This document shows positions 25,626 through 48,180 of a stretch of DNA of 48,604 nt, piece after piece; position 1 is the stretch's first letter; every line of letters begins with the position of its first letter. The notes beneath the pieces were generated by a model. It saw only the letters and a list, made by a program, of their open reading frames with translations, did not search any database and was not told the origin of the DNA. This stretch comes from Patescibacteria group bacterium UBA3458 (GTDB taxonomy: Bacteria; Patescibacteriota; Minisyncoccia; Phycocordibacterales; UBA2100): contig DFRR01000005.1 of NCBI GenBank assembly GCA_002378745.1, positions 43,581 through 92,184 on the forward strand. Reading direction: 5' to 3'. The translations under genes and the position numbers were made by a program.

Positions 25626-25655
25626 GCAAACGGATGTATGGATGCTACCATGGTG

Positions 25656-25661
25656 TATACT
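25656..25661 (+). promoter_or_regulatory. TATACT box 9 nt upstream of the gmd ATG
   Basis: ggtgTATACTaaccaccatATG. It is divergent from the Wzy_C-TPR promoter in a 59-bp spacer. Confidence 0.4.
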
Positions 25662-25670
25662 AACCACCAT

Positions 25671-26729
25671 ATGAAAAAGGCATTGGTAACAGGTATCACG
25701 GGTCAGGACGGTTCATACCTTGCAGAGCTCCTCCTTGAAAAGGGGTACGAAGTGCATGGTGTTCAACGACCATCCAGCTCCATACGCACGGCACGTATCA
25801 ACCACTTATTCAATGACCCGGAGATACACGACCGTAAACTTTTTTTACATCATGGTGACCTTACTGATACAACAAACATTTCAAGCTTGATTCGTGATAT
25901 CGAGCCAGACGAAGTGTACAACCTAGCAGCTCAAAGCCACGTACGTATTTCGTTTGACTTACCGGAGCTGACTGCCGAAACTGACGCTCTCGGCACTCTG
26001 ACAATTCTGGAGTCTATACGCAAACAAGGCTTAACGCACAAAACAAAATTTTATCAGGCTTCGACTTCGGAACTATATGGGAAGGTGCAGGAAATTCCAC
26101 AAACCGAAAATACACCCTTTTATCCCCGCAGTCCGTATGGTGTTGCCAAACTATACAGCTTCTGGATTATTAAAAACTATCGCGAAGCGTACGATATGTA
26201 CGCATGCAATGGCATTCTCTTCAACCATGAAAGCGAACGGCGTGGATACAACTTCGTGACGCGGAAAATCACCATTGGTTTATCTAAGATTAAGCTTGGG
26301 CAACAGACGTTGTTAGAACTTGGAAATCTCGATGCTAAGCGAGATTGGGGGTACGCTAAAGAGTATGTGGAGGCAATGTGGCTGATGCTTCAACAGGAAA
26401 AGCCTGAGGACTTTGTGATTGCAACCGGTCAAACACACAGTGTGCGGGAATTTATTGAAGCAGCCTGTGAGGAGCTCGATATCGAACTTGAGTGGCACGG
26501 TGAAGGAGTTGATGAGATTGGTATCGATAAAAAAACTGGTAAACCAATCATAAAAATCAACCCCCGCTACTTCCGTCCAACAGAGGTTGATGTATTGCTC
26601 GGCGATCCGAGTAAAGCAAAGGAGAAACTTGGGTGGGAAGCAAAGACCAAATTTGCAGAACTCGCCAAACTAATGGTCAAGGCTGATTTTGAATTAATGC
26701 AGAAAACTAACGGTGAGTTTTGGTATTAA
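25671..26729 (+). CDS. gmd: GDP-mannose 4,6-dehydratase
   Basis: [30 protein letters not shown]... with YGVAKLY (YxxxK) and [11 protein letters not shown]. The track ORF start at 25491 was replaced by ATG 25671 because the 60-aa extension is non-homologous and overlaps the divergent gene. Confidence 0.95.
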
Positions 26730-26834
26730 AAGTAAGATCGTCTCGAATCGTTTTTCATCATTTAAGTCTGCGCTTAATAACCACTTCCTACCCCAACTTA
26801 CACTCTATAGCAACGGCACTCTAATCGACTAGTT

Positions 26835-27761
26835 ATGGATAAGCATGCAAAAATATACATAGCAGGACACCAAGGATTGGTTGGTTCGGCCATTGTCCGC
26901 AAACTGGCAACGGAGGGATATGCAAACATCCTTACCCGAACCCGGCAAGAACTAGATTTACTTAACCAACAAGCCGTGGCTGATTTCTTTGCGGCTGAAA
27001 AACCGGAGTATGTTTTTCTGGCTGCTGCCAAAGTGGGAGGCATTGTCGCCAATCGCGACTTCCCTGCCGACTTTATGTATCAAAATCTCCAAATTCAGAA
27101 TAATATTATTGAGAACTCGTACCGCAGTGGTGTAACCAAACTTCTCTTTCTCGGCTCTTCCTGTATTTACCCAAAACTTGCGCCCCAACCAATTACAGAA
27201 GAGTCTCTTCTGACGGGACCACTGGAGTCGACTAACGATGCGTATGCCGTTGCCAAAATTGCAGGCATTAAGATGTGCCAATCGTATAATAAGCAGTACG
27301 GCACAAACTTCATCAGCCTCATGCCAACGAACCTCTACGGTCCGAATGACAATTTTGACCTTGAGACCTCTCATGTTCTTCCTGCTTTGATTCGAAAATT
27401 TCACGAAGCGAGAGAGATGCATGCCCCCTCGGTCACACTCTGGGGTACCGGCTCACCAAAGCGTGAGTTCCTTCATGTTGACGATCTCGCCGACGCATCT
27501 GTATTCCTTATGAATAATTACGATGAATCCGATATCATTAACGTAGGTACCGGTGAAGACGTTACAATCAAAGAGCTTGCGGAACTAATACGAGAGACCG
27601 TTGGTTATACTGGGAGCATTGAGTGGGATTCCTCAAAGCCCGACGGGACGCCACGAAAATTACTCGATGTATCGCGTCTGCACAAACTGGGTTGGAAGCA
27701 TTCAATAGACCTTGAGAACGGAATTGGGAGCACGTACGACTGGTACTTTAAAAATTGGTAG
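26835..27761 (+). CDS. fcl: GDP-L-fucose synthase (GDP-4-keto-6-deoxymannose 3,5-epimerase/4-reductase)
   Basis: 308 aa. [15 protein letters not shown]..., [24 protein letters not shown] and NLYGPNDNF are characteristic of Fcl/WcaG. Confidence 0.92.
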
Positions 27762-27792: not shown

Positions 27793-29121
27793 ATGTACGC
27801 ACACCTAAACGCTTTCGCTCGCCTTCTGTTGCCCAATTGGATTTACACACACTTTATTGGCGACTGGAATACGGGAGCATTCAAAAAGTACTCCTACAAC
27901 ACGGGCTGGGCACTGCTCACCAGAACTGTCAGTATAGTGCTGTCTTTTTTAGTTACCATTTACCTCATCCGATACCTTGGTCCAGAAAACTACGGGCAGC
28001 TTAGTTATGCTGTATCATTTGTGGGGGTTTTCTCTATCATTTCATCTCTTGGCTTAGATAACATACTGTACCGAGACCTCATTAAGTATCCAGACCAACG
28101 AAATCACTACCTTGGATCCGCTTTCATACTAAAGCTTGTAGCTGGAACGATTGCAGCAACTCTAACTATAGTCACCGCATTTTTCTTATCACAAGGCGAC
28201 GTATCACGAATGGTGATATTTATGCTCGCAACTACCTTTATATTTAATGCGTTTAATGTAATCGGATATGAGTTTCAAGCAAATGTTCAACAAAAGTATC
28301 CTTCACTGGTTTCTCTTGCAGTAGTTGTTATTTTAAACATACTAAAGATCTTGGTCATCTTGCTTGATAAGGGAGTCTTGTACATAGGGCTTGTTCTTCT
28401 TCTAGAAGCAATCCTCTACGCCGCACTGTTTATATATATACGCAGGAGATACTACGGAACCTTATTTGCATGGCGCTTTAAGATTTCAGTTGCTCAAAGT
28501 TTATTAAAAGATTCATGGCCCTTTATCTTTATTGCTGCTTTTACCACCATATACGTCCGCATTGATCAGATTATGTTGAAATATCTGTTAGATGCTTCTG
28601 CCGTTGGTCTGTATGATGCAGCAGTGCGAATCGCCGAAGTGTGGCTTTTCATTCCAGCAATTATTGTTTCCTCGCTCTTCCCAGCAATCATGAACGCGAG
28701 AGCATCTAGTATTCAGGAGTATAAACGAAGATTATTGATACTTTGCGTGTTGTTATGCACCTTCGCTGCCGTAGTCGCGATTGCCTCATCGCTACTTTCA
28801 AAACCTCTCATGAGGTTACTGTATGGGCCTGCGTTTTTGGCGAGTGCTGGGGTATTTTCTATCTATGTATGGTCGGGCATCTGGGCATCACTGGACATTG
28901 TTGTTCGTTATTTCCTTATCGCGGAGAATAAGCGAGTGCTCATATTTACCACATCGTTAGCTGCAGCGGTGATTAATATTCTATTAAACCTTATCCTCAT
29001 ACCGTATCTGGGTATATATGGAGCTGCCTGGTCTACTTTTATTTCCTACATGTTATTGGCCTTCCCGGTTGTGCTCATACTTATAATGCAGGAGAAAAAG
29101 CTTGGAGCCACTACTTCTTAA
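27793..29121 (+). CDS. wzx: Wzx-type oligosaccharide flippase (MOP superfamily)
   Basis: About 442 aa with more than 10 TM helices. The N-terminal region ...LLTRTVSIVLSFLVTIYLIRYLGPENYGQLSYAVSF... is typical of polysaccharide biosynthesis flippases. The start was set to ATG 27793 to avoid overlap with fcl. Confidence 0.75.
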   Translation: MYAHLNAFARLLLPNWIYTHFIGDWNTGAFKKYSYNTGWALLTRTVSIVLSFLVTIYLIRYLGPENYGQLSYAVSFVGVFSIISSLGLDNILYRDLIKYPDQRNHYLGSAFILKLVAGTIAATLTIVTAFFLSQGDVSRMVIFMLATTFIFNAFNVIGYEFQANVQQKYPSLVSLAVVVILNILKILVILLDKGVLYIGLVLLLEAILYAALFIYIRRRYYGTLFAWRFKISVAQSLLKDSWPFIFIAAFTTIYVRIDQIMLKYLLDASAVGLYDAAVRIAEVWLFIPAIIVSSLFPAIMNARASSIQEYKRRLLILCVLLCTFAAVVAIASSLLSKPLMRLLYGPAFLASAGVFSIYVWSGIWASLDIVVRYFLIAENKRVLIFTTSLAAAVINILLNLILIPYLGIYGAAWSTFISYMLLAFPVVLILIMQEKKLGATTS

Positions 29122-30037
29122 GTAACGCTCTCAGTTCACTTTCTATTATTTCTAGTGAGGTTCTTGTTGGGCGATAGCCGAGGCTCGAAAGCTTTTCCGA
29201 TTCAGAGTAGTAGGCAGTCTTTTGTCCCGTAGGACTTTCTACTCGCATGGAATCAATGAATTCATATACGAGCCCGAGCTGTTGACCTATATATTCTAGC
29301 AACTCTATTTTTGACACAGGTTTAGCACTCTGCATGTCAAATGCTTCGTTTTGAGGCTCTTGCTCGCACAAAAACTGCACCACGTGCCATACGTCGTGTG
29401 CAGTAATGTAATCGCGAACCATATTGGCTGGCGTCGTGTACAGCGTCGTCCCGTCTTGCAAACACTTTGCTATTTCAGAAACTAAAAAAGAGTCCTCCGT
29501 ATCCAGGAAACGACTTACGAATGCAAATACGCGCAAATCAATTATGGCTAATCTTTGGTCTGCACGATGCTTTACTTCCGACATAAGTTTAGCGACTGCA
29601 TAACTATTGTCATTTCGGAGATTAAAAATAGCGTTGGTTGTGTCGGTTATTGGTCCGTCGGCTGCCAGCCCGTAAACGGAGCCAGAACTGATATTAAATA
29701 CCCGCGCATCAGGATGTTTCTTTAGATACTCTGCTAATAAGGTATCCATTTCTTCGATTACAGAAAATACCAACGATGGATTCTCGGACAGTTTTTTGGG
29801 ACTACCGATTCCCGTTGCGTTAATAACAATATCGTATTCTCCACTTAGCAATGCTTTGTAGGGTAAGACCAGAGGTGCATGTATACTCTGCGCTCCCAGA
29901 AACGCTTTGGCCTGGATAACATTGCGCGAAAATGCAGCCACTTCAAAACTAAATTCTTTGGCACCCGCGAGTAATGATCGACCTATATAGCCAGTCGCTC
30001 CTAGCACCGCAACTTTTGGATTAGGTTGTCCCTTCAT
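29111..30037 (-). CDS. NAD(P)-dependent sugar epimerase/reductase (extended SDR)
   Basis: 308 aa with the Rossmann motif VAVLGATGYIGRSL and YAVAKLMSE (YxxxK). A 4-nt overlap with the upstream ThDP enzyme suggests coupling. Confidence 0.75.
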   Translation of the reverse strand: MKGQPNPKVAVLGATGYIGRSLLAGAKEFSFEVAAFSRNVIQAKAFLGAQSIHAPLVLPYKALLSGEYDIVINATGIGSPKKLSENPSLVFSVIEEMDTLLAEYLKKHPDARVFNISSGSVYGLAADGPITDTTNAIFNLRNDNSYAVAKLMSEVKHRADQRLAIIDLRVFAFVSRFLDTEDSFLVSEIAKCLQDGTTLYTTPANMVRDYITAHDVWHVVQFLCEQEPQNEAFDMQSAKPVSKIELLEYIGQQLGLVYEFIDSMRVESPTGQKTAYYSESEKLSSLGYRPTRTSLEIIESELRALLKK

Positions 30038-31836
30038 TTCGAATCTTTCTCATCAACAGGCTTAATTAAGAGGTTGTTGCGATATTCTTCGCGATCGAGA
30101 AACGGCATCATGTCCTCAAGCGGACGTGAGACCATAGTGCCATCTTCGCGCCTTACTGAAGCCACGGCAGGTACTACCGGCTCATTCTTTGGACACATCA
30201 CTTCTACTAGCGCCGCGCCTTTATAGGCCAGCACTTTTTTAAGGTCTTTTTCCAACGTGACGCTGTTCGAGAGTTTAAAATATTTTATCCCGTACGCACC
30301 GGCGATCTTTTCCAGGCTAGGGATTGATACTCCCGACTCCGGACCAGTACCAATTAGATGTCCTTCAAAGAATTTATTTTGAGTTGCCCTAATCGAGAGA
30401 TAACCGCTGTTATTTAATACGAAGGTCTTAACGGGGAGCTTATTATGCACAATTGTCTGTAATTCCTGGATGTTTAGCTGCAGCGAACCATCGCCGGTAA
30501 TCCCATATACTTCTCCACCTTTGGCAACTGCCGCGCCAATACTAGCCGGCACAGTAAAACCCATATCTGCTTGGCCACCGCTGGTTAGGTAACGTTGCTT
30601 CTTCTTTATGTTTACTGCCATAGTAGTGACATAAAACGAAGACCCGGCATCAGAAACAACTACGCCGTCCGCAGGCATGAGTCGACTCAGCGTATCAATC
30701 AGGTTGAACATACTGATTTTGCCCTTGAGCGTCCGATACGCTGGTAAACAGACAGGGTACTTCTTTTTCCATTCGCGACATTGTTTCAACCAAAAACGTA
30801 CATCGGGCATCTGTTTTGGTTGAAAACGTGTAATGAATTCTTTTGCGTCGGCATTGATGAAAAGGTCAATCTTTATTGTTGGCTTCTTGTGCTCTACAGG
30901 GTCAATGTCAATCACAATTTTCTTTGCCTCACGTGCGAATAACTCATACTCGTATCCGATTGCCGTTACACTCAAACGTGTTCCAATCGCGATGATTAGA
31001 TCGGCGTTTTGCATCGCTAGGTTGCCCGACCGACTTGCCTTTGTTCCAATTACACCAATATAATTCGAGTGGTCGGTCGGCAAGTTTGATACTCCAAGGT
31101 ACGGAGCAACTACTGGGATTTTGTATTTCTCAACGAACTTCTTGAACTCGGGAAGCGCACCTGCGAGTCGCAGACCTTGCCCGCCAATGATAACTGGTCG
31201 CTTGGCTTCTTTCAGCATCTTTTCAAGAGCGGATAACTCGCGCTTAGTCGGTACTTTTTTGTATTCTTTTTTCAACTCTTTTGGGTCGAACTTTTTTTGC
31301 TTTGTACTGTCAAAAAAAGCACCTTGTACATCCATTGGAATATCGATCCATACCGGGCCTGGACGCCCTGTCTTTGCAAGATATAAAGCTTTCTCAATAT
31401 GGTATGCAACCTCGTGTGGATCGTTGAGCATTACAGCATACTTGGTGAGTGACTTTACAATTGGAATGATGTCGGCTTCTTGCGTACCGATTTGCCGCAA
31501 CGGAATATCTGAATTATGTGTAGTTTCTTTACGCTTAACTTGCCCGGAAACAAAGACGCACGGAACACTATCTTGCCATGCGTCGAGCAAACCTGTTATT
31601 GCGTTTGTCGCTCCACAACCTGTGCTCGTATACGCAACTCCTATACCGCCCGTATACTTAGCGTACCCGACAGCGGCCATCGCACTCGCCTGTTCATGGT
31701 GATTACAAACTGCCTTAAGTTTCGGATGCACATATACACTGTCAGAAAGAAACATCATACCACCGCCAGTCAACATAAAAATGTCTTTAGCGCCTTCTCT
31801 GTAAAGACGATCTGTAATGTAATCAACGACTCGCAT
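30034..31836 (-). CDS. Thiamine-diphosphate-dependent enzyme, acetolactate-synthase-large-subunit-like (YerE-like candidate)
   Basis: 600 aa. The ThDP motif is GDGSLQLNIQELQTIVHNKLPVKTFVLNNSGY (GDG-x24-NN). The N-terminal Pyr domain is FMLTGGGMMFLSD...NHHEQASAMAAVGYAK. Confidence 0.85.
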   Translation of the reverse strand: MRVVDYITDRLYREGAKDIFMLTGGGMMFLSDSVYVHPKLKAVCNHHEQASAMAAVGYAKYTGGIGVAYTSTGCGATNAITGLLDAWQDSVPCVFVSGQVKRKETTHNSDIPLRQIGTQEADIIPIVKSLTKYAVMLNDPHEVAYHIEKALYLAKTGRPGPVWIDIPMDVQGAFFDSTKQKKFDPKELKKEYKKVPTKRELSALEKMLKEAKRPVIIGGQGLRLAGALPEFKKFVEKYKIPVVAPYLGVSNLPTDHSNYIGVIGTKASRSGNLAMQNADLIIAIGTRLSVTAIGYEYELFAREAKKIVIDIDPVEHKKPTIKIDLFINADAKEFITRFQPKQMPDVRFWLKQCREWKKKYPVCLPAYRTLKGKISMFNLIDTLSRLMPADGVVVSDAGSSFYVTTMAVNIKKKQRYLTSGGQADMGFTVPASIGAAVAKGGEVYGITGDGSLQLNIQELQTIVHNKLPVKTFVLNNSGYLSIRATQNKFFEGHLIGTGPESGVSIPSLEKIAGAYGIKYFKLSNSVTLEKDLKKVLAYKGAALVEVMCPKNEPVVPAVASVRREDGTMVSRPLEDMMPFLDREEYRNNLLIKPVDEKDSK

Positions 31837-31838
31837 AC

Positions 31839-33020
31839 CTATCGTTCGGTTAACGCTGCTCTTAATCTGTCTATTCCTTTTTGTATATCCTCCCGCGAAC
31901 TAACTACGCACATACGAATATAGCCTTCGCCATAATTTCCGAAGTTGGTACCCGGCAACACTGCAACACCAGCTTCTTCAAGTGCAAAGTCAGTAAATTC
32001 TTCGCTGGTCATACCTGTATCACGAATGCTCGGGAACACGTAGATGGCACCACTTGGTGGCAAACATCTAATGCCCGGGATCGAATTTAATCCATCGACT
32101 AACACTTGCATACGCATTTTATATTCATCGGCCATAGCGTTAACTGCACTCTGATCGCCTGAAATTGCCTCAATTGCAGCATACTGAATAAATGGGGGCA
32201 CACAAGAGGAGGTTGTTTGTAGGAGCAAGTCCATCTTTGCGATCACGTCAGCCGGACCAACCAGTGCACCGATACGCCAACCGGTCATTGCAAATGCCTT
32301 GCTAAAGCCATTTGCAATGATAGTACGCTCTTTGCAGTGATCCAAAAATGAAGGGCTGCTAAAGTATACCCCTTCGGCAAAATACATTCTTGAATAAATT
32401 TCGTCACTATATAGATATACATCATGGTCTTTCGCGATTTTTGCAATTTCTACAACCTCCTCTTTAGTCATTACGGAACCTGTTGGATTTTGTGGGGAGT
32501 TAATGATAATCATTCTCGTTTTTGGTGTTATTGCCGCCCGCACGTCATCTGGGTTCATACGAAATGCATTCTCCTCCTTTAGAGGTACACGGACTGCAGT
32601 GACCCCACACGCTTTTAAGACCGAGTAGTAGGTTGGAAATCCGGGATCAGGAACAATAACTTCGTCTCCAGGTTCAACTAGACAGCGAACTGCATAGTAG
32701 ATACCTATGTTAGCACCAGGCACGATTAGTACTTGGTTTAAATCGGGTAAAAACTTGCGCGAGCGTGCCGTAGTGGCACGAACAGACTCGCGTAACTCTT
32801 TAATGCCAGTCGAAGGTGCATAGTGTGTCTTTCCTTCACGAAGTGCTTTCACGCCAGCATCTGTGATGTTTTTTGGGGTTTCAAAATCGGGATCACCAAT
32901 TTCAAAATGAATGATATCTTTCCCCTCCTTTTGCATCTCCTGTACTTTAGCAAGCACTTTGAACATTGGTTGTCCGTCAATGGTATTGGCAAATTTTGTT
33001 AATCGGTATTTCATATACAT
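31839..33020 (-). CDS. Class I/II PLP-dependent aminotransferase (AspC-like)
   Basis: 393 aa. The NGFSKAFAMTGWRIG lysine motif and INSPQNPTG are typical of fold-type I class-I aminotransferases. Confidence 0.85.
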   Translation of the reverse strand: MYMKYRLTKFANTIDGQPMFKVLAKVQEMQKEGKDIIHFEIGDPDFETPKNITDAGVKALREGKTHYAPSTGIKELRESVRATTARSRKFLPDLNQVLIVPGANIGIYYAVRCLVEPGDEVIVPDPGFPTYYSVLKACGVTAVRVPLKEENAFRMNPDDVRAAITPKTRMIIINSPQNPTGSVMTKEEVVEIAKIAKDHDVYLYSDEIYSRMYFAEGVYFSSPSFLDHCKERTIIANGFSKAFAMTGWRIGALVGPADVIAKMDLLLQTTSSCVPPFIQYAAIEAISGDQSAVNAMADEYKMRMQVLVDGLNSIPGIRCLPPSGAIYVFPSIRDTGMTSEEFTDFALEEAGVAVLPGTNFGNYGEGYIRMCVVSSREDIQKGIDRLRAALTER

Positions 33021-33036
33021 TCACGATGGAAATTAG

Positions 33037-33807
33037 CTACCACAGTTTCCATGGGGGTTTTCCATTACTCCACATTTCTTCCAACTTATGCTTATCGCTG
33101 AGAGTGTCCATCGGGTGCCAGAAACCGTCGTGAGAATACGACGACAATCCACCTTCGTGGGCCAGGTTTTTAAGCGGGGCTTGTTCAAGTACCGTGGCAT
33201 CCCCTTCTTCTAGCGAATCGAAAATCTGTGGCTCAAACACAAAAAAGCCAGCACTAATGCGTTTTTGATTATCTGTCTTCTCGCTAAAGTTTGTTACTGC
33301 ATTGCTTTCTCCGACCTCAACGACGCCAAATCTTCCGTCTGGGATAACTGTGGTTACTGTGGCTATACGTCCGTTTTCTTTGTGGTGCGCCAGAAGCTTG
33401 TTCACATTGATGTCTCCCACGCCATCACCATACGTCATCATAAACGCCTCATTCCCGATATGCTCCCGCACCCGCAGCAAGCGTCCGCCAGTCATGGTTG
33501 TTAATCCTGTATCAATCAGCGTAACTTTCCATGGCTCAGGTGCCGGAGTATGCATTTCTATCGAACCTGTAGTGAAATCAAAAGTGACGTTACTTGTGTA
33601 TAAATGATATCGAGAGAACCACTCTTTGATGAATTCGCCTCTATACCCCAAACAGATAACAAACTCATTGAATCCATAGTGGGAATAGATTTTCATAATA
33701 TGCCACAACATTGGCATACCACCGACTTCTACCATTGGTTTAGGTCGCACATGCGTTTCCTCCGCCAAGCGTGTCCCCAATCCTCCAGCTAGTATTACTA
33801 CTTTCAT
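33037..33807 (-). CDS. rfbF: Glucose-1-phosphate cytidylyltransferase
   Basis: MKVVILAGGLGTRLAEETHVRPKPMVEVGGMPMLWHIMKIYSHYGFNEFVICLGYRG is a near-canonical RfbF/DdhA N-terminus. 256 aa. Confidence 0.92.
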   Translation of the reverse strand: MKVVILAGGLGTRLAEETHVRPKPMVEVGGMPMLWHIMKIYSHYGFNEFVICLGYRGEFIKEWFSRYHLYTSNVTFDFTTGSIEMHTPAPEPWKVTLIDTGLTTMTGGRLLRVREHIGNEAFMMTYGDGVGDINVNKLLAHHKENGRIATVTTVIPDGRFGVVEVGESNAVTNFSEKTDNQKRISAGFFVFEPQIFDSLEEGDATVLEQAPLKNLAHEGGLSSYSHDGFWHPMDTLSDKHKLEEMWSNGKPPWKLW

Positions 33808-33810
33808 AAT

Positions 33811-34914
33811 CTATTCTGAGAAATTAAAATAATCCAGTATCTGCTCTTGCGTGATGCGGGATACACTCTCAGGGTCTTCCGCTGTCACTGCATACCAACG
33901 AACAGTTTCTTTTAAAGTTTTTTCAAATGACCACCGTGAAGCCCACCCCAGCCGGCGGTACGCCTTCGTGGTGTCCAAGACCAATTCGGTAGATTCGTGC
34001 TTTGTTTGTGCCACAGCAGAGTCCTGCGCTATTTGTACAGAACCTTTCCCTAGTTGCGCAAGTGCTTTTGTGGCAAAATCACCAACAGTAACCCACGAAG
34101 TATGCTGAGGACCAAAATTCCAAGCTCCCGAAACTTCAGTGTCCCCTTTTGCTAAACGCATACCCATTAATAGGTACCCAGACAACGGCTCAAGAACATG
34201 CTCCCACGGGCGAACCGCATGAGGGTTGCGTATAGAAACATTGCCATCACCATGTAATACTGAGCGCATGATGTCCGGAACCAGCCTGTCTTCGGACCAA
34301 TCCCCACCACCAATCACGTTGCCGGCGCGGGCAATGCCCAACAACGTAGTGTGCGCATCACCGTACTTTGCTGGGTTAAAAAATGACAATCGATATGCGT
34401 TTGCGACAATATCCGCTGCGGCCTTACTGCCACTATACGGATCGTATCCACCGAGCTTTTCGTTCTCACGATACCCATATACCCACTCTTGATTTTCATA
34501 TACTTTATCTGTGGTTATCACAACCATTGCCGTAACAGTTGGTGTTGTACGCACCGCTTCAAGTACATTAGTGGTCCCGACAACATTGGTTGTAATAGTG
34601 AATACGGGCTCCTCGTAACTTCGTCGCACTAAAGCTTGTGCAGCAAGGTGGAATACTATGTCGGGCTTTTCTGTAGAGACTATCTTTTGAATTTCGTCGG
34701 CATCTCGCACATCACACTCATAGTGTCGTACACGAGATTGCAAATCGGTCTGCGTGAACATGCGCTTGTCCGGCTCAACCGGTAGTGCCACACCAACCAC
34801 ATCTGCACCTAGCAGCAACAAAACATGAGTTAACCAAGAACCTTTAAAACCCGTATGTCCTGTAACGAGAACCTTTTTGCCCCGATAGAATTCTTGCAAC
34901 CTTTTATCATCCAT
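33811..34914 (-). CDS. rfbG: CDP-glucose 4,6-dehydratase
   Basis: FYRGKKVLVTGHTGFKGSWL..., DPYSGSKAAADIV (YxxxK) and the ~367-aa length. The start was set to ATG 34914, which has AGGAG 5 nt upstream. Confidence 0.9.
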   Translation of the reverse strand: MDDKRLQEFYRGKKVLVTGHTGFKGSWLTHVLLLLGADVVGVALPVEPDKRMFTQTDLQSRVRHYECDVRDADEIQKIVSTEKPDIVFHLAAQALVRRSYEEPVFTITTNVVGTTNVLEAVRTTPTVTAMVVITTDKVYENQEWVYGYRENEKLGGYDPYSGSKAAADIVANAYRLSFFNPAKYGDAHTTLLGIARAGNVIGGGDWSEDRLVPDIMRSVLHGDGNVSIRNPHAVRPWEHVLEPLSGYLLMGMRLAKGDTEVSGAWNFGPQHTSWVTVGDFATKALAQLGKGSVQIAQDSAVAQTKHESTELVLDTTKAYRRLGWASRWSFEKTLKETVRWYAVTAEDPESVSRITQEQILDYFNFSE

Positions 34915-35011
34915 AGTTCTCCTATTTATATAGGAGTTACCATACATAGTCAAAAGAAAAGCGAGCATGATATACTGTCTAGAATTCACATTAAAATCAA
35001 TACATTTCACT

Positions 35012-36211
35012 ATGAAAGTCCCCTACGCGAAGTCAGTACACGGCGAAGAAGAAATAGAAGCTGTGGTTGAAGTGCTACGCGGTAATACGGCGCTCGGCCC
35101 GAAAGCCGACGAATTTGAAAAGAAGATCGCCGCTATGTTTGGCAAAGAGTACGGAATAATGGTCAACTCCGGTTCATCGGCCAACTTGCTTGCTTTTGAG
35201 GCGATGGGGCTTGAGCCGGGTGATGAGGTGATTACTCCACTTTTAACATTTGGTACTGTCGTTGCACCTATCATTCAGAAGGGTCTGGTGCCGGTTTTTG
35301 TCGATGTAGAAGAGGGTACCTATATTGTTGATCCGGACTCGGTCGAAGCAGCTGTTACCGAAAAAACCCGAGTCCTGATGATCCCGTCTCTTTTGGGCAA
35401 TATTCCAAACCTGGAGCGTCTTCGCGAAATCGCCGACAAACACAAACTATGGCTGGTAGAAGATTCTTGTGACACTCTTGGTGGAACATATAAAGGAAAA
35501 CCGTCCGGTTCGTATTCGGACATATCTACCACCAGCTTCTACGGTTCACATATCATAAACGGTGCCGGTGGTGGTGGTATGATCATGGTTCATGATCAAA
35601 AACTTGCAGAACGTCTAGTAGTACTTCGTGGTTGGGGCCGACGATCTTCGCTCTACGGAGAAACCGCAACATCTGAACTACTGGAAAATCGGTTCGAGGT
35701 GGAGCTCGAAGGAGTACCTTACGACAACAAATTTGTATTTAGCGAAATCGGCTACAACTTCTTGCCGCTAGAGCTTCAGGCTGCTTTTGCGTTAGTGCAA
35801 CTAACTCGCTTCCCCGATTTTGCCAAAGCACGCAAGGCGCACTTTGCAGCCATGCTGGAGTTCTTCAAACAGTATGAAGAATATTTCATTCTTCCTAAGC
35901 AGACACCAAACTCTGAAACCAACTGGTTGGCTTTCCCAGTTGTAATCAAGGACAGTGCACCCTTTGACCGTAAAGGCCTGGCTACTTTTCTCGAGAAAAA
36001 TGGTATTCAGACCCGACCAGTGTTTACCGGCGACATATTGAAGCAGCCAGCCTTCAAGAACATTCCACACCGTCTGGCAGAAACCTCCTACGCCAACACA
36101 GAAGCGGTCATGCGCGGCGGGCTGGTATTTGCCTGCCACCAAGGACTGACTGGCGATCAGATTTCTTATGTACAAGAACATATTTCTTCGTACATTGCCT
36201 CCCGACAATAG
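35012..36211 (+). CDS. DegT/DnrJ/EryC1-fold sugar 3-dehydratase (ColD/E1-type, His replaces catalytic Lys)
   Basis: 399 aa. The active-site region TSFYGSHIINGAGGGGMI has His where aminotransferases of this fold have Lys (SF..xK..xxGEGG). Only 2 Cys occur in the whole protein. The start was set to ATG 35012. Confidence 0.8.
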   Translation: MKVPYAKSVHGEEEIEAVVEVLRGNTALGPKADEFEKKIAAMFGKEYGIMVNSGSSANLLAFEAMGLEPGDEVITPLLTFGTVVAPIIQKGLVPVFVDVEEGTYIVDPDSVEAAVTEKTRVLMIPSLLGNIPNLERLREIADKHKLWLVEDSCDTLGGTYKGKPSGSYSDISTTSFYGSHIINGAGGGGMIMVHDQKLAERLVVLRGWGRRSSLYGETATSELLENRFEVELEGVPYDNKFVFSEIGYNFLPLELQAAFALVQLTRFPDFAKARKAHFAAMLEFFKQYEEYFILPKQTPNSETNWLAFPVVIKDSAPFDRKGLATFLEKNGIQTRPVFTGDILKQPAFKNIPHRLAETSYANTEAVMRGGLVFACHQGLTGDQISYVQEHISSYIASRQ

Positions 36212-36438
36212 CCGCATGCGCAAGCAAGGCTTGTGCTACAATCCCTGGGTATGTACGTCAATCCAACGTCACTGCAGGCGTGTACCTTATTACATTTGAT
36301 CAGTTTACTGACAACTGAGGATCACTGACAACGGTATTCACTCAAGCCAGTCCCTATGCTTTTTATAAACTACTGCACTCAATACCTCTTAGATTTGCCT
36401 GAACTAGAGCAAAAACTATACCTTTTGCCTCTTTTGAC

Positions 36439-37377
36439 ATGAATTTTGAAACCAAACTCAGCATCTGTATACCAACGTTCAATAACTCGAGAGGCCTCGA
36501 CGAAATTTTACTTATACTGAGTAAACAGGCCAATGACTTTGGGCTGATGGACCGAATAGAAGTTTGTATATCTGATAACTCCCAATATGGTCTAAACGAG
36601 CGGATGATTGCCTACAATAAAAGTAACTTGGATATTGTTATCAACTATTCTCAAAATGAAAGTAACATCGGATACGATCGTAATGTAGATCGCGTCCTCA
36701 AAATGGCAACGGGTGACTTCTGCTGGTTACTATCTGACAATGAAAACATCTCCGACGACGCCCTTAGAAATATCTACCAGGTTGTTAGCGCGTATCCTCA
36801 AGTGGGCCATATACTAATCTGCCAGTCTGATTCTCGGGTTGACGTCTCGCGACGTTTCGAATCATTGTCTGCAGCAATGGAATTTCTGTGGCCATGGATA
36901 CCGGGCGGGTTAATATCACGAAATATTTTCGCACGGAACCTTCTTCCCAAAGACCTAACTAAGTATTACGGAAATGACTGGATCCATATGTCTCTAGCTA
37001 TAGAAATAGGTCGCACCAACCCAGTTGTATGTATCGGAGAGCTGCTAAGTGGTACCGAGAGCGAAGTCTGCCTCTGGGCCAAGAATGGACAAACTTTCCG
37101 TACATATATGAATCTACTAAATATAATGCGGAATTTGCCACACGAATATGATCAAAAGATCAAAAGCAGAATAGTTGGTGCCATGCAAAAAAGAGTACCG
37201 CGTGAGATACTATCATCAAAGCTGTACGGACTTACTAATACACTTAGCGTACGCCAGGAAATACGAAAACAGTTGGAAAGAAGGTCTGCTCTTAAATTCT
37301 TATCACTAGTAGCTCTTGCGACACCAGCCACATTGATAAAGCATGCAAAAAAATTCAAAAATTATTTTGGTTATTGA
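36439..37377 (+). CDS. Glycosyltransferase family 2-like
   Basis: LSICIPTFNNSRGLDEILLIL...ICISDNSQ... is a GT-A N-terminal pattern. 312 aa. Confidence 0.65.
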   Translation: MNFETKLSICIPTFNNSRGLDEILLILSKQANDFGLMDRIEVCISDNSQYGLNERMIAYNKSNLDIVINYSQNESNIGYDRNVDRVLKMATGDFCWLLSDNENISDDALRNIYQVVSAYPQVGHILICQSDSRVDVSRRFESLSAAMEFLWPWIPGGLISRNIFARNLLPKDLTKYYGNDWIHMSLAIEIGRTNPVVCIGELLSGTESEVCLWAKNGQTFRTYMNLLNIMRNLPHEYDQKIKSRIVGAMQKRVPREILSSKLYGLTNTLSVRQEIRKQLERRSALKFLSLVALATPATLIKHAKKFKNYFGY

Positions 37378-38392
37378 CGTAGGCAATCCCGATTGCGACG
37401 GCAAACTATTTGACCGTGATTTTTTAAGCAATATTAGCCATACATTGTTGCCTATTTATGAACTGGTGAAAATGTGCGATTCATTAGGAATAAAGTGTGT
37501 AACACCTGATGTAGTCCTGAGTAAAGAAATTACACAAGGCGACCAAGAATTACTTCTCATTTCTCACCTTGTTAATAATCGCACCACTAACCTTATTTCG
37601 AGGGGAGCAAAACCTTTCCTGCTCTTATGTCAAGAGTCACCAATGATTGCTACGCGCTTTTACACAAATTTCCGCAACCTGTCAAAACCTTTTGCTTATA
37701 CACTAGCTTTCAGTGGTATGAAAAAGCGAGCTCATGTTAAAACTAATTTCATTCCGCTCCACTTTCCTGTCTATTTTGATACAAGAGCCACGCCAACTAT
37801 TCCATTTTCCGAAAAAAAGCTAATAGCACTGATTGCAGGTAACAAGAGTGCTCCAGCGTGGAAGGCAGTATTAATGAAACTTTTTTTTGGTACTAAGGTT
37901 AAATTGATCTATCCAGTCCGAAAAAAGTTTGTAACGGGTCTAGCGTCAAAGAAAGTTATAGATTTATACGGGAAAGGGTGGGATACTGATAGCAATGAGT
38001 CAGTCCGTGCTGTATATAAAGGATTAGTTCCTGCCGACGGTAAATTAGAGACTCTTTCAAAATATAAGTTTACACTATGCTTTGAAAATGCCATTTTCCC
38101 TGGTTATGTGACCGAAAAGTTGTTTGATGCACTCCTAGCCGGTAGCGTGCCAGTATATCTTGGTGATCCCGACATCTTTGAGAGTATACCAAAGAATATC
38201 TTTGTCGACGCACGTGAGTTCACAGATGTAGATAGCCTACACAGATATTTGAGCAACATGTCAAAAGATATATACGAACAGTACCGAAAAGCTGGTGAGG
38301 AATTCTTAACTTCTTCTGCCTTCGATAAATTTAGTTACGAAACTTTTATTGAAAAGGTGATAAACCTCATAAAATCTTATGAATTCAACTAG
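37343..38392 (+). CDS. GT10 alpha-1,3/4-fucosyltransferase
   Basis: KYKFTLCFENAIFPGYVTEKLFDALLAGSVPVYLG matches the conserved GT10 motif (FENS..xGYVTEK..DA...G.VP.Y.G) known from H. pylori FutA/B. Confidence 0.8.
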   Translation: MQKNSKIILVIDVGNPDCDGKLFDRDFLSNISHTLLPIYELVKMCDSLGIKCVTPDVVLSKEITQGDQELLLISHLVNNRTTNLISRGAKPFLLLCQESPMIATRFYTNFRNLSKPFAYTLAFSGMKKRAHVKTNFIPLHFPVYFDTRATPTIPFSEKKLIALIAGNKSAPAWKAVLMKLFFGTKVKLIYPVRKKFVTGLASKKVIDLYGKGWDTDSNESVRAVYKGLVPADGKLETLSKYKFTLCFENAIFPGYVTEKLFDALLAGSVPVYLGDPDIFESIPKNIFVDAREFTDVDSLHRYLSNMSKDIYEQYRKAGEEFLTSSAFDKFSYETFIEKVINLIKSYEFN

Positions 38393-40281: not shown

Positions 40282-41009
40282 GAGCGTTTATTAAAAAACT
40301 TGTCAGGCTCATGCAAATGCCCTTTGTCCTGAGGGACTACTTTCGATTCGCTAGAAGTAGTGACGAGCGCTTCTCATTAGCCTTATGGAACGCATACCCC
40401 TGCTTGAAGGATAAAACGATGCAAACCGGCTTTGATAGGCATTACGTCTACCACACTGCATGGGCAGCGCGAGTTCTACAAGAAACCAAGCCCGAAACGC
40501 ATACTGACATTGCATCAAGCCTCTATTTTTCTGCAATTGTTTCAGCCTTTGTGCCGACGACATTCTACGACTACCGTCCGGCAAAGTTGGAATTACAGAA
40601 CCTCACCAGTGAGCGTGCCGACCTCACTCAGTTACCGTTTCCGGATAACAGCGTGAAGTCGCTCTCCTGCATGCACACCGTTGAACATGTTGGCCTTGGA
40701 AGATACGGTGACCCTGTTGACCCGGAAGGAGATATAAAAGCGGCTCGTGAACTTTCCCGCGTACTCGCACCTGGCGGTTCACTATTGTTCGTTGCCCCTA
40801 TCGGGAAAAACGCCGTGATAGAATTTAATGCACACCGCATATATACATACGAAGCGGTGTTGGAGCTCTTCCCAGAACTTACCCTCAGCGAATTCTCTCT
40901 CATACCAGAGCATGAAAAAAACGGTGGGCTCATCCGTAATGCGGAGCCCGCAGTGCTAGAGAACGAACACTACGCATGCGGCTGTTTTCACTTCACCAAA
41001 CCAATATGA
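40278..41009 (+). CDS. DUF268-type class I SAM-dependent methyltransferase (probable sugar O-methyltransferase)
   Basis: SLSCMHTVEHVGLGRYGDPVDPEGDIKAARELSRVLAPGGSLLFVAPIG...FNAHRIY matches the DUF268 signature (EH.GLGRYGDP.DP.GD ... FNAHRIY) as I recall it. Both ends have ATGA overlaps. Confidence 0.65.
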   Translation: MRAFIKKLVRLMQMPFVLRDYFRFARSSDERFSLALWNAYPCLKDKTMQTGFDRHYVYHTAWAARVLQETKPETHTDIASSLYFSAIVSAFVPTTFYDYRPAKLELQNLTSERADLTQLPFPDNSVKSLSCMHTVEHVGLGRYGDPVDPEGDIKAARELSRVLAPGGSLLFVAPIGKNAVIEFNAHRIYTYEAVLELFPELTLSEFSLIPEHEKNGGLIRNAEPAVLENEHYACGCFHFTKPI

Positions 41010-41845
41010 TTATCGTCAATCTAAAAGGTGGGCTTGGGAATCAAATGTTTCAGTATGCATGCGGTCGAGCACTCGCGTTACGCACCCGTGATGAGTTGCA
41101 GATTATTGCGGAAGGCCTAGAAGCAGCTAACGCTATTGGTGACCTCTATCGCCCGTTTTCGCTACAAAAGTTCGCTATCGCCGGAGAAGTAATTGGAAAG
41201 AACGAGATACCTCTATGGCATCGTTTGTATTCCCTTTTCGAACAAAAAGTCCTTCGTCGATTCTATGTACATTTTGAACCGTCCCTTTTTTCCAAGAAGG
41301 GTACGGTGTACCTCAATGGTTATTTCCAATCCGAAAAGTACTTTGCCGACTACGCTGATACAATCAGAAGGGAGCTTCGGATACAGGATCCGCTTGGTGC
41401 AGCAGCCGCTGATACCGCTTCGATAGTTACAAACGACGACGTCTCGGTGTCGCTACATGTACGGCGTGGCGACTACGTTACGCACCCAGAATTTGGTGGG
41501 ATTGCCGACGTTTCCTACTACCAACGCGCAGTTGCGAAGATGCAACAGCGAGTGCCACACGCGCATTTTTATGTTTTTTCTGACGACATCGAGTGGTGTA
41601 GAAACAACCTTGCTCTCCCAAAAGACGCGGTTTTTGTTTCCGGCACAGAAATGCAAGACTATGAGGAGCTACACTTGATGTCGCTCTGTCGCCACAATAT
41701 CATTGCCAACTCCTCTTTCTCTTGGTGGGGTGCATGGCTCAATGCCAATCCTGACAAGATAATCATCGCCCCTTCACGTTGGGCGCACGGTAAAAAAGAG
41801 AAAGATTTCCGTGATATTATTCCAGAAAGATGGATTCGGGTATGA
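41006..41845 (+). CDS. GT11 alpha-1,2-fucosyltransferase
   Basis: MIIVNLKGGLGNQMFQYA..., HVRRGDY and SSFSWWGAWLN are the conserved GT11 motifs (FutC/WbsJ type). Confidence 0.88.
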   Translation: MIIVNLKGGLGNQMFQYACGRALALRTRDELQIIAEGLEAANAIGDLYRPFSLQKFAIAGEVIGKNEIPLWHRLYSLFEQKVLRRFYVHFEPSLFSKKGTVYLNGYFQSEKYFADYADTIRRELRIQDPLGAAAADTASIVTNDDVSVSLHVRRGDYVTHPEFGGIADVSYYQRAVAKMQQRVPHAHFYVFSDDIEWCRNNLALPKDAVFVSGTEMQDYEELHLMSLCRHNIIANSSFSWWGAWLNANPDKIIIAPSRWAHGKKEKDFRDIIPERWIRV

Positions 41846-42228
41846 GAAAGGAGTTCGACAGTTGGAACAAGATCAAGAAAGAGACGGACGGCCGAACTGA
41901 CCGTCTTTTATACAAAAAGCGTGAGATACGCTGGTGTACACTCGGTGCCAATATTGGCTTTGAACAAGATGGGACCGGTAGCGGCTTTGCACGGCCCGTG
42001 CTGGTGATAAAAGACTTTAACCAACACGTCTGCCTAGTCGTCCCTCTTACTACCTCAACAAAAGAAAATCCTTACCACTACAAGATTGGAGAGATTGATG
42101 GTCAACAAGCGTCCGTTATTATTTCTCAGCTACGCTTAGTTGATACCAAGCGCCTGTATAAGAAAATTGCTACACTGAACGAGAAAAAGTTCTCCGCAAT
42201 AATAAAAGCGATCAAAGATATGCTTTGA
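41842..42228 (+). CDS. PemK/MazF-family toxin-like protein, no cognate antitoxin gene nearby
   Basis: About 128 aa. EIRWCTLGANIGFEQDGTGSGFARPVLVIKDFNQHVCLVVPLTT follows the PemK pattern (W...G.N.G.EQ.G....RPVLV......C.V.PLT). The ATG overlaps the GT11 stop (ATGA at 41842-45). Confidence 0.75.
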   Translation: MRKEFDSWNKIKKETDGRTDRLLYKKREIRWCTLGANIGFEQDGTGSGFARPVLVIKDFNQHVCLVVPLTTSTKENPYHYKIGEIDGQQASVIISQLRLVDTKRLYKKIATLNEKKFSAIIKAIKDML

Positions 42229-44241: not shown

Positions 44242-45187
44242 AGGTTTCGAGTGTTGACGTTACCATGTCGGCAAGCGTATGCGTTGCTCTCCATGCGCTT
44301 GCGGTATGCATCTTTTCTACATCGGCAATCGCTGTGCCCGCATCACCCGCTCGTCGTGGTTGTACAACATACGGTACATCGTACCCCAGCGCTGCTGCAA
44401 ACGCCTTGATGACTTCCAGTACCGAGTGCCCCTGATTCATACCAAGGTTGAATGTGCCGTGCAGTGGCTCGTTAATGCTGTGAACGTGCGCTTCAACAAT
44501 ATCGTTGATATGTATGTAGTCACGTACCCCGGTGCCATCTGTGGTCTCATAATCGTCTCCAAACACCGTAGCTCCTCTGCCCTCGCGCACTGCCTGCGCG
44601 ATGAGCGGAAATAGATTTGCTGCTTTTTCTTCTTTGAACCGCAGCCCTGCGTCACCCGCAACATTAAAATATCTAAATATCGTCGCTGTAGTGAGCTTTT
44701 GTGTGCGCACACATTCATTAATAAGCATTTCTGCAATGAGCTTGGTGGTTCCGTACACACTGAGTGGTTCCATTGCATCTTCTTCGGAATATACCCCTGT
44801 CGCGTGTGGTTGGTACACCGCAGCAGTCGAAGAGAATATAAGGTGCGGTACGTCATGTTTTGCAACCGCTTCCAGAACATTAATGGTTCCTACCACATTT
44901 ATGCTGAAGTATTTCTCTGGATTGTGTTCACCCTCTTCTACTGACTTCCCTGCTGCAAGATGAATAACGACATTCGGCACACTCTGTGCAAAAGCAGTAT
45001 CGAGCGCCTGTGCATCTCGAATATCTCCTTCAATGAAAGCTGCGTCCTCCGAAACGGCATCACGTTTCCCTGAGGAAAGATTGTCGAATACCGTTACTCG
45101 ATGTCCTTCTGCACTGAGACGTGCAACGCACGCCGAGCCAATATAGCCGGCGCCACCAATGACGAGTATCTGTTTTGTTGTGGTCAT
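44225..45187 (-). CDS. galE: UDP-glucose 4-epimerase-like NAD-dependent epimerase
   Basis: ILVIGGAGYIGSACVARLSAEGHRVTVFDNLSSG, SVYGTTKLIAE (YxxxK) and RYFNVAG. 320 aa. Confidence 0.8.
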   Translation of the reverse strand: MTTTKQILVIGGAGYIGSACVARLSAEGHRVTVFDNLSSGKRDAVSEDAAFIEGDIRDAQALDTAFAQSVPNVVIHLAAGKSVEEGEHNPEKYFSINVVGTINVLEAVAKHDVPHLIFSSTAAVYQPHATGVYSEEDAMEPLSVYGTTKLIAEMLINECVRTQKLTTATIFRYFNVAGDAGLRFKEEKAANLFPLIAQAVREGRGATVFGDDYETTDGTGVRDYIHINDIVEAHVHSINEPLHGTFNLGMNQGHSVLEVIKAFAAALGYDVPYVVQPRRAGDAGTAIADVEKMHTASAWRATHTLADMVTSTLETYGAKN

Positions 45188-46470: not shown

Positions 46471-46472
46471 AC

Positions 46473-48131: not shown

Positions 48132-48138
48132 GGTGGTA

Positions 48139-48144
48139 AGTATA
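48139..48144 (-). promoter_or_regulatory. TATACT box 7 nt upstream of ATG; a -35-like GTGACA lies 17 nt further upstream
   Basis: The minus strand reads taGTGACActatagttagtgctgggTATACTtaccaccATG. Confidence 0.45.
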
Positions 48145-48146
48145 CC

Positions 48147-48180
48147 CAGCACTAACTATAGTGTCACTAAGTTAGTGCTG
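48147..48180. promoter_or_regulatory. 11-bp perfect inverted repeat bracketing the -35 of the ATPase promoter (candidate operator)
   Basis: cagcactaact (48147-57) and agttagtgctg (48170-80), with a 12-nt loop. Confidence 0.5.

Follow-up and report, generated by a model that had tools for sequence, protein, structure and literature searches.

What kind of sugar is made by an operon that joins the enzymes of CDP-glucose synthesis to a thiamine diphosphate (ThDP)-dependent carboligase, and what is a class-I aminotransferase doing among them? The question is raised by contig DFRR01000005.1 of Patescibacteria group bacterium UBA3458, of which we analysed a stretch of 48,604 nucleotides (hereafter the window). 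Five genes on its minus strand, namely rfbG, rfbF, the aminotransferase gene AT1, the ThDP enzyme gene and a gene for a short-chain dehydrogenase/reductase (SDR), very probably form a branched-chain cytidine diphosphate (CDP)-sugar operon. Comparative genomics makes it probable that AT1 supplies the carboligase with its 2-oxo-acid donor, and we lean towards the complete scheme developed here, a YerE-type pathway to a C4-branched CDP-deoxyhexose for a cell-surface glycan. The operon, and the divergent gene that belongs to the proposed pathway, are laid out as follows (PLP, pyridoxal 5'-phosphate; PMP, pyridoxamine 5'-phosphate; AspAT, aspartate aminotransferase):

33811..34914, minus strand: rfbG/ddhB, CDP-glucose 4,6-dehydratase, operon gene 1 (TIGR02622 equivalog, 449 bits, cutoff 278)
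33037..33807, minus strand: rfbF/ddhA, glucose-1-phosphate cytidylyltransferase (TIGR02623 equivalog, 370 bits, cutoff 300, full-length match)
31839..33014 or ..33020, minus strand: AT1, class-I (AspAT I-gamma-like) PLP aminotransferase (PF00155, E 2e-72)
30034..31836, minus strand: YerE/JanthE-like ThDP-dependent carboligase, 600 aa (TPP_enzyme N, M and C domains)
29111..30037, minus strand: extended SDR, candidate YerF-type reductase (PF01370)
35012..36211, plus strand: E1/RfbH-like PMP-dependent 3-dehydrase variant without Fe-S cysteines, divergent to the operon

An earlier sequence-only reading of this DNA had described the five minus-strand open reading frames (ORFs), and all are present where it placed them, with a 3-nt gap between rfbG and rfbF, 16 nt between rfbF and AT1 (22 nt with the start used by the orthologues and the public gene call), 2 nt between AT1 and the ThDP gene, and a 4-nt overlap between the ThDP and SDR genes. 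The rfbG ATG at 34914 has an upstream GGAG ribosome-binding site, its public gene call is 367 aa long, and the public annotation of this metagenome contig (beach sand, run SRR1569742) gives the same operon boundaries. That reading also counted a 3-dehydratase, the ThDP enzyme and a reductase candidate as all present; so they are, but the 3-dehydratase lies outside the interval 29111..34914 that it covered, is devoid of the Fe-S cysteines and has no E3 partner gene in the window.

The interpretation turns on the ThDP enzyme, which our comparisons place with the YerE-like carboligases rather than the acetohydroxyacid synthases (AHAS). The protein contains all three expected domains (PF02776, PF00205 and PF02775), the catalytic Glu48 (HHE48Q) and the GDG448-450...NN475-476 motif. 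Its best match in the PDB is JanthE (8rph; E 5e-107, 362 bits, full-length), followed by PpYerE from Pseudomonas protegens (5ahk; E 2e-79, 271 bits), with identities of 33.5% and 35.8% (the latter about 36% over 481 aa), whereas AHAS structures score 247 bits or less, the plant enzyme being the best of them (E 3e-72) and the bacterial and yeast enzymes no better; the lead of PpYerE over AHAS in these scores is modest. The AHAS large-subunit model TIGR00118 gives 378 bits against a cutoff of 538, and the enzyme likewise stays far under every PRK AHAS cutoff. Its Thr485 aligns with the acceptor tryptophan of plant AHAS (Arabidopsis W574, E. coli AHAS II W464), the residue that selects the 2-oxo-acid acceptor. 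A C-terminal motif, DGT[ML]VSxPLED, is common to the window enzyme and JanthE, and neither AHAS nor PpYerE aligns to it. No gene for an AHAS small subunit (ACT/ilvN-type) was found in the window. In a rough neighbour-joining tree rooted on E. coli IlvI, built without support values and without YpYerE, ErwE, MMAR_2332 and MyGE, the enzyme groups with 20 homologues in one clade; JanthE and PpYerE branch from its stem and plant AHAS lies outside. Clustering with AHAS/IlvB had been named beforehand as the outcome that would speak against a YerE-like enzyme, and the protein falls outside both E. coli IlvI and Arabidopsis AHAS. Both JanthE and PpYerE belong to the 'YerE-like' carboligases that accept ketones (PMC12247030, PMC12188165). 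The earlier statement that YerE is the only studied enzyme of this kind is outdated, since characterisations of ErwE, MMAR_2332, MyGE and JanthE are available (PMC9306805, PMC12247030).

Relatives of this enzyme are numerous and occur in a recurrent genetic setting. The ThDP subfamily has thousands of database matches, the 120 best listed being 57-85% identical, and a scan of the genome collection gave 80 loci (cited below by L numbers) in which ORFs were called and then clustered, 76 of them being typed by cassette. The 80 loci span Patescibacteria, Desulfobacterota, Campylobacterota, Beta- and Gammaproteobacteria, Verrucomicrobiota and the Lentisphaerae/Kiritimatiellae group, as well as Planctomycetes, Spirochaetes, Acidobacteria, Chloroflexi, Firmicutes and two archaeal lineages. 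Their canonical gene order is rfbF-rfbG-E1-AT1-ThDP-SDR; the arrangement of CDP-sugar genes, ThDP enzyme and reductase is conserved in at least 50 loci, and an AT1 orthologue (50-81% identity) is found in 58 of the 76 typed loci, usually directly upstream of the ThDP gene and mostly at a spacing of -4 to +23 nt, which makes the AT1-coupled arrangement the commonest form in this sample. Dozens of unrelated genomes repeat this gene order, which is therefore not a chance juxtaposition, and the expectation that the operon would be conserved as a unit is borne out across many phyla. In both gene order and sequence, the nearest relatives of the window are Patescibacteria MAGs: the closest of these loci are 74-76% (ThDP enzyme), 76-81% (AT1) and 77-79% (E1-like enzyme) identical to the window, and synteny with a Nomurabacteria contig continues as far as SecA, taking in the Wzx, fcl, gmd and Wzy-TPR genes. 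In Burkholderia pseudomallei, BPSS0419-0422 are listed as a G1P (glucose-1-phosphate) cytidylyltransferase, CDP-glucose 4,6-dehydratase, RfbH and 'aminotransferase', which is the canonical module order (PMC4275268).

A profile scan of the metagenome collection, made from the side of AT1, shows how close this coupling is. Every relative of at least about 56% identity with room downstream has a ThDP gene directly downstream; relatives at 47-56% are mostly paired with more divergent acetolactate synthase (ALS)-like enzymes, and in one such case (L138) an AT1 relative is paired with a PpYerE-like enzyme in another CDP-sugar cluster; below about 50% the linkage is mostly gone. At L107 (1630-10584), an AT1-like gene (54% identity) is paired with one for a divergent ALS-like ThDP enzyme (36% identity), and the cluster around them encodes an HldE-like kinase/nucleotidyltransferase, a SIS isomerase, a GT2 glycosyltransferase, a methyltransferase and a pair of radical-SAM enzymes. 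Use of the aminotransferase-ThDP pair thus extends beyond CDP-hexose pathways, apparently to sugars of the heptose type.

The SDR that follows the ThDP enzyme has the motifs of its family (GATGYIG at 13-19, Ser117/118, Tyr146-x3-Lys150), and a PDB search returned no close solved homologue, the best matches being remote (E 5e-5). In 17 loci the gene after the ThDP enzyme encodes an SDR of this same family, and in most of the remaining ones an SDR of another family; counted over the AT1-type loci with room downstream, 44 of 55 have an SDR-fold gene in this place. Since an SDR still follows the ThDP gene where AT1 is present, AT1 is no substitute for a YerF-type ketoreduction, and we regard the SDR as a candidate YerF-type reductase of the branch carbonyl.

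AT1 itself belongs to class I and is not a sugar-type DegT enzyme, as had been proposed from sequence: against its strong PF00155 match, the DegT model gives a weak and partial one. None of the curated NCBIfam/PRK equivalogs was reached, the nearest being GntC (347 against 415) and the PRK08361 AspAT model (339 against 624). Judged from its residues (393-aa numbering), AT1 has the full catalytic set of an alpha-amino-acid/2-oxo-acid transaminase, with the PLP lysine Lys241 (GFSKAF), the cofactor ligands Asn178, Asp206 and Tyr209, the phosphate-binding Arg249 and the alpha-carboxylate-binding Arg369, all six invariant across the 58 orthologues; an N-terminal GQPMF motif is likewise invariant and specific to the AT1 family. 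The best solved relatives are the aromatic/aspartate aminotransferases of Pyrococcus horikoshii (1dju, 1gd9), which share Asn104 with AT1. Phormidium AspAT (1j32) has a lysine at this site, the residue with which acidic-substrate enzymes such as Thermus AspAT bind the distal carboxylate.

The role of AT1 is illuminated by the loci that do without it. By Pfam assignment, these 18 typed loci comprise 8 with a DmpF/DmpG-type cassette (acylating acetaldehyde dehydrogenase plus 4-hydroxy-2-oxovalerate aldolase), 5 with a PanB-like gene, 3 with a UxaA-like cassette and 2 with none of these. Most of the alternative cassettes are placed immediately upstream of the ThDP gene, with a PanB-like gene just downstream in some loci and aldolase genes several kb upstream in two. 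Among cultured carriers, Marinomonas sargassi C2222 (L053), Methylophilaceae LSUCC0401 (L079) and Lachnospiraceae M18-1 (L082) are of the AT1 type, Thiomicrorhabdus arctica DSM 13458 (L043) and Petralouisia muris (L054) are of the aldolase type, and Sporomusa acidovorans (L039) has neither of the two. AT1 never occurs together with an aldolase, PanB-like or UxaA-like cassette (Fisher p 1e-14 over the 76 typed loci, uncorrected for phylogeny), and the enzymes of all four cassette types yield 2-oxo acids. The eight DmpF/DmpG-type loci carry the arrangement of ErwJ/ErwI, the aldolase cassette that makes the 4-hydroxy-2-oxopentanoate donor for the YerE-like ErwE in erwiniose synthesis (Steitz et al.; PMC9306805). 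We believe that this exclusivity, together with the retention of the SDR and the linkage of AT1 to the ThDP gene, favours a donor-supply role for AT1. Of the two roles offered in the sequence-only reading, donor supply therefore gains from comparative genomics, and amination of the branch becomes the less favoured.

Two of the alternative cassettes are described here as they stand. The UxaA-like cassette (L010 5831-10001, L023, L060) has an altronate/galactarate-dehydratase-like gene upstream of the ThDP gene, accompanied by genes for a second nucleotidyltransferase, a mannitol-dehydrogenase-like protein and a member of the inositol-monophosphatase family, and may lead to a donor of the caryophyllose/gastriose type, a polyhydroxylated 2-keto-3-deoxy acid. 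The PanB-like gene, of the ketopantoate hydroxymethyltransferase family, adjoins the ThDP gene without AT1 in L015 (764-1753), L024 (11841-12782), L028, L036 and L063, and its product could represent a fourth donor-forming kind, yielding a hydroxymethylated 2-oxo acid.

As for the donor in the AT1-coupled form, related enzymes suggest where to look. JanthE prefers C4-C6 2-oxo acids over pyruvate (PMC12247030), and ErwE takes 4-hydroxy-2-oxobutanoate and 4-methylthio-2-oxobutanoate but not pyruvate (PMC9306805). A neutral, hydrophobic or 4-functionalised amino acid as the substrate of AT1 would fit what these enzymes accept, and keto acids derived from homoserine or methionine may be named, with low confidence, as candidates. 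The donor is probably not pyruvate and, as a consequence, the product would not be yersiniose itself, so that the earlier proposal of a yersiniose-type sugar keeps its branched-sugar core and probably loses its eponym.

Several points weigh against this scheme. The subfamily is just 34-36% identical to characterised YerE-like enzymes, the tree has the omissions stated above, and the function given to the ThDP subfamily is a proposal about proteins all known from their sequences. The mutual exclusivity of AT1 with other cassettes stands on about nine independent non-AT1 lineages. Moreover, identity between the ThDP enzymes of AT1-type loci and those of aldolase-type loci reaches 80%, and no alignment column separates the two types at 85% conservation; at a looser threshold one notable column emerges, Ser/Thr395, which is Ala in 8/8 aldolase-type sequences (3 clades). 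Such near-likeness gives little sign of a re-tooled donor pocket, and the donor may for this reason resemble the aldolase product. The alpha-carboxylate arginine of AT1 would also be needed for amination of a ketone with glutamate, and so speaks for neither role over the other. The Cys-less E1-like enzyme might serve the adjacent GDP-mannose branch of the locus, a point taken up below. Finally, in secondary metabolism acetyl branches undergo further modification, carried out by reductases, transaminases or oxygenases (PMC9306805).

This last precedent, and the scant difference between the ThDP enzymes of AT1-type and other loci, would suit a pathway in which AT1 acts after the ThDP enzyme, aminating an acyl branch derived from, for example, pyruvate to give a 4-C-(1-aminoalkyl) deoxysugar while the SDR does another job. 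The tight, almost obligate AT1-ThDP linkage fits such a pathway equally well, as does the persistence of that link in the non-CDP setting of the heptose/radical-SAM cluster L107. A tailoring aminotransferase, however, should combine freely with any donor cassette, and AT1 excludes three cassettes that share only the production of a 2-oxo acid. The SDR is also kept after the ThDP gene in at least 80% of AT1-type loci, and the position of AT1 upstream of the ThDP gene is the pathway order for donor supply. In addition, all nucleoside diphosphate (NDP)-sugar aminotransferases known to us are of the DegT type and none is of class I, and no surface-glycan sugar with an aminoalkyl branch is known to us. 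We therefore consider branch amination unlikely. The broader proposition that would follow from it, with AT1 as a class-I aminotransferase acting on a nucleotide sugar and amino-branched deoxysugars as a new and widespread group, made in Patescibacteria with an E3-independent E1 free of Fe-S, appears to us similarly doubtful.

The donor-supply scheme requires a ketosugar acceptor, and here the divergent 3-dehydrase enters. Its best PDB match is Yersinia E1 (3bcx; E 4e-80, 273 bits), with ColD at E 2e-50 and 175 bits, and it scores 366 against the RfbH (PRK15407) cutoff of 423. The catalytic histidine is kept, SFYGSH aligning with SFYPAH(220)H of E1, where the H220K mutant 3bb8 has a lysine. 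The Fe-S stretch of E1, DWGRDCyCapgCdntC, aligns with GWGRRSSLYGETATSE in the window enzyme, which has zero cysteines there, the E1 motif DWGRDCxC..DNTC being changed to GWGRRSSLYGE. This Cys-less variant is common to seven Patescibacteria loci (L003-L006, L016, L028, L036), and the true E1 of canonical loci has the motifs SFYP[AP]HH[IM]T-MGEGG and DWGRDCxC..DNTC, accompanied in some of them (L043, L053, L071) by an E3 reductase with Fer2, FAD_binding_6 and NAD_binding_1 domains. No E3-type gene with these domains is found in the window. From the retained histidine, the missing Fe-S cysteines and the missing E3 gene we infer a ColD-like, E3-independent mechanism on a CDP substrate for the predicted 3-dehydrase. 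Between E1 and AT1, four other loci (L044 3665-4372, L050, L015, L061) encode a 235-aa protein with NAD_binding_1 only and no Fer2, which may be a truncated E3-type reductase.

The same features permit a different assignment, in which the Cys-less enzyme works as a ColD analogue in the guanosine diphosphate (GDP)-mannose branch, in a colitose-type pathway with gmd and the fcl-like gene, and the ThDP enzyme branches CDP-4-keto-6-deoxyglucose with its 3-OH kept. A catalytic histidine without an Fe-S cluster is what ColD has, the window is without an E3 gene, gmd and fcl lie within 10 kb in the window, L003, L004, L016 and L036, and the fcl match is only marginally over its cutoff (515 against 500), so that this gene, on its sequence, may be a ColC-like colitose synthase. 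Set against this, the enzyme is much nearer to E1 than to ColD in bit score, and its gene and rfbG share a divergent promoter region in the window, L003, L004 and L016. The Saccharibacteria loci L005 and L006, moreover, combine the Cys-less variant with rfbF, rfbG and the ThDP gene and have neither gmd nor fcl, ColD-type genes with the SSFFSHH motif form a group apart from it in related loci, and canonical loci have a true E1 in the in-line position. On balance we find it improbable that the enzyme belongs to the GDP branch.

Under the donor-supply scheme, the pathway would run as follows. RfbF would form CDP-glucose and RfbG would convert it to CDP-4-keto-6-deoxyglucose, both assignments being based on equivalog-level matches. 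The divergent E1-like enzyme probably strips the 3-OH to give CDP-4-keto-3,6-dideoxyglucose, in ColD-like, E3-independent chemistry with PMP presumably regenerated from an amino donor. AT1 would transaminate an amino acid to its 2-oxo acid. To judge from its family and gene context, the ThDP enzyme would decarboxylate this acid and add the resulting acyl-anion equivalent to the C4 ketone, leaving a tertiary alcohol that bears an acyl branch. The SDR, like YerF, would reduce the branch carbonyl to a 1-hydroxyalkyl group, and the Wzx and Wzy-like proteins and glycosyltransferases would place the sugar in a polymer that also contains fucose.

A more distant possibility is an Ehrlich-type route, in which AT1, the ThDP enzyme and the SDR convert an amino acid through its 2-oxo acid and aldehyde to an alcohol that becomes a non-sugar substituent of the glycan. 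The gene order agrees with it, and AT1-like and ThDP pairs are found with no CDP-sugar genes within 6 kb (L105, L107, L111). Nevertheless, the ThDP enzyme has the ALS/YerE carboligase architecture with its middle domain and is nearer to ketone-accepting carboligases than to decarboxylases, its gene sits tightly between those for E1 and the reductase in operons for CDP-ketosugars, and the aldolase-type loci agree with the experimentally supported erwiniose logic (PMC9306805), all of which makes such a route very improbable. That a housekeeping AHAS and AspAT sit in a glycan locus by chance we reject as next to impossible, for although homologues are automatically annotated 'acetolactate synthase large subunit' and AHAS models match at E ~1e-113, the missed cutoffs of all these models, the replaced acceptor tryptophan, the want of a small-subunit gene in the window, the place in the tree and a linkage to CDP-sugar genes kept across phyla are all contrary. 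A logic of the phosphonate/sulfonate type, with an aminotransferase and a decarboxylase, was dropped in view of the full 600-aa ALS architecture and the equivalog-level CDP-glucose enzymes RfbF and RfbG.

The surroundings of the operon comprise gmd, fcl, a Wzx flippase, a Wzy-like TPR protein, glycosyltransferases (GT) of families GT2, GT4, GT10 and GT11 and a DUF268 methyltransferase, which identify the region as a surface-glycan locus. The gmd and fcl genes, for GDP-L-fucose synthesis, lie beside GT10 and GT11 fucosyltransferase-family genes (25638..27761, 37343..38392 and 40976..41845, all plus strand), and from this combination the glycan probably also contains fucose; it is unlikely to be a classical O-antigen. 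At 29111..29121 the 3' end of the SDR gene runs 11 nt into that of the convergent Wzx gene, with no terminator-like site standing out there, and a promoter/terminator scan of 28800..36500 gave counts no higher than in shuffled sequence. Among the glycosyltransferase genes of the locus there is an ORF for a PemK/MazF-type toxin by Pfam annotation (41830..42228, plus strand). Further away, a giant ORF (3449 aa, TTG start codon; 3064..13413, minus strand) has a homologue in 0/80 related loci, and the window edge (45184..48152, minus strand) encodes a protein with HHH (ComEA-like) and PKD domains and a TraG/TraD-like protein. The gene content represented by these edge genes and the giant ORF is consistent with a candidate phyla radiation (CPR)-type genome.

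YerE-like branching is already known, including a 'unifying scheme' in which the cluster encodes the synthesis of the donor; what is new here is the transaminase-coupled form, and the Fe-S-free E1 is a second, smaller novelty. To our knowledge, YerE-type branching is the sole enzymatic route to the long C-branched sugars of surface glycans, and the few of its enzymes that have been studied use donors that are, as far as we know, all pyruvate or made by an aldolase. We found nothing relevant on an aminotransferase-coupled YerE module or on amino-branched sugars in the searchable literature, nor under the Burkholderia locus tags, and no sugar structure is assigned to the AT1-coupled form despite its being the commonest in our sample and spanning Proteobacteria, Firmicutes, Verrucomicrobia, Campylobacterota, Spirochaetes, Patescibacteria and some archaea. 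If AT1 is indeed the donor supplier, a series of 4-C-(1-hydroxyalkyl) sugars with amino-acid side chains is to be expected, the structure of the branch should be predictable from the donor cassette of a genome, and the module would constitute a natural transaminase-carboligase-reductase cascade to chiral tertiary alcohols, of interest for biocatalysis. The Cys-less E1 would be a natural experiment in 3-deoxygenation without E3 and, occurring in a probable CPR genome, bears on the surface display of minimal cells.

Of the systems described so far, the YerE/YerF pathway to CDP-yersiniose A in Yersinia pseudotuberculosis is alike in making CDP-glucose by RfbF, in its use of RfbG and an E1-type 3-dehydrase, and in having an ALS-like ThDP enzyme that branches the sugar at the C4 ketone, followed by a reductase gene. 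The donor of YerE is pyruvate and its cluster is not known to contain an aminotransferase; the window differs in a dedicated class-I aminotransferase translationally close to the ThDP gene, in an E1 without Fe-S and in the lack of an E3 gene. Measured against E1 itself (RfbH/DdhC/AscC), the window 3-dehydrase is alike in sequence and in the catalytic histidine that replaces the PLP lysine, but unlike the E1/E3 pair it retains none of the Fe-S cysteines and is accompanied by no E3 gene in the window, so that it resembles ColD in cofactor content and is closer to E1 in sequence. JanthE from Janthinobacterium sp. HH01 aligns over the full length of the window enzyme and shares its C-terminal motif, differing in a ThDP motif with an unusual CDG instead of the canonical GDG of the window enzyme; JanthE works with 2-oxo acids from C3 to C6 and with ketones as acceptors (PMC12247030, PMC12188165), and its physiological substrates and role are not known (PMC12188165). 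The closest parallel in logic is offered by ErwE/ErwF with ErwI/ErwJ in erwiniose synthesis, by MMAR_2332 in that of caryophyllose and by MyGE, in which a cluster-made, non-pyruvate donor is passed to a YerE-like enzyme and then to a reductase (PMC9306805). Steitz et al. (2022), who set out the 'unifying scheme', mention transamination only as a means of synthesising donors and not as a module of biosynthesis (PMC9306805). In the window, by contrast, the donor-forming enzyme would be a transaminase in place of the aldolase of the erwiniose-type scheme (PMC9306805), and the branch made from such a donor would carry an amino-acid side chain.

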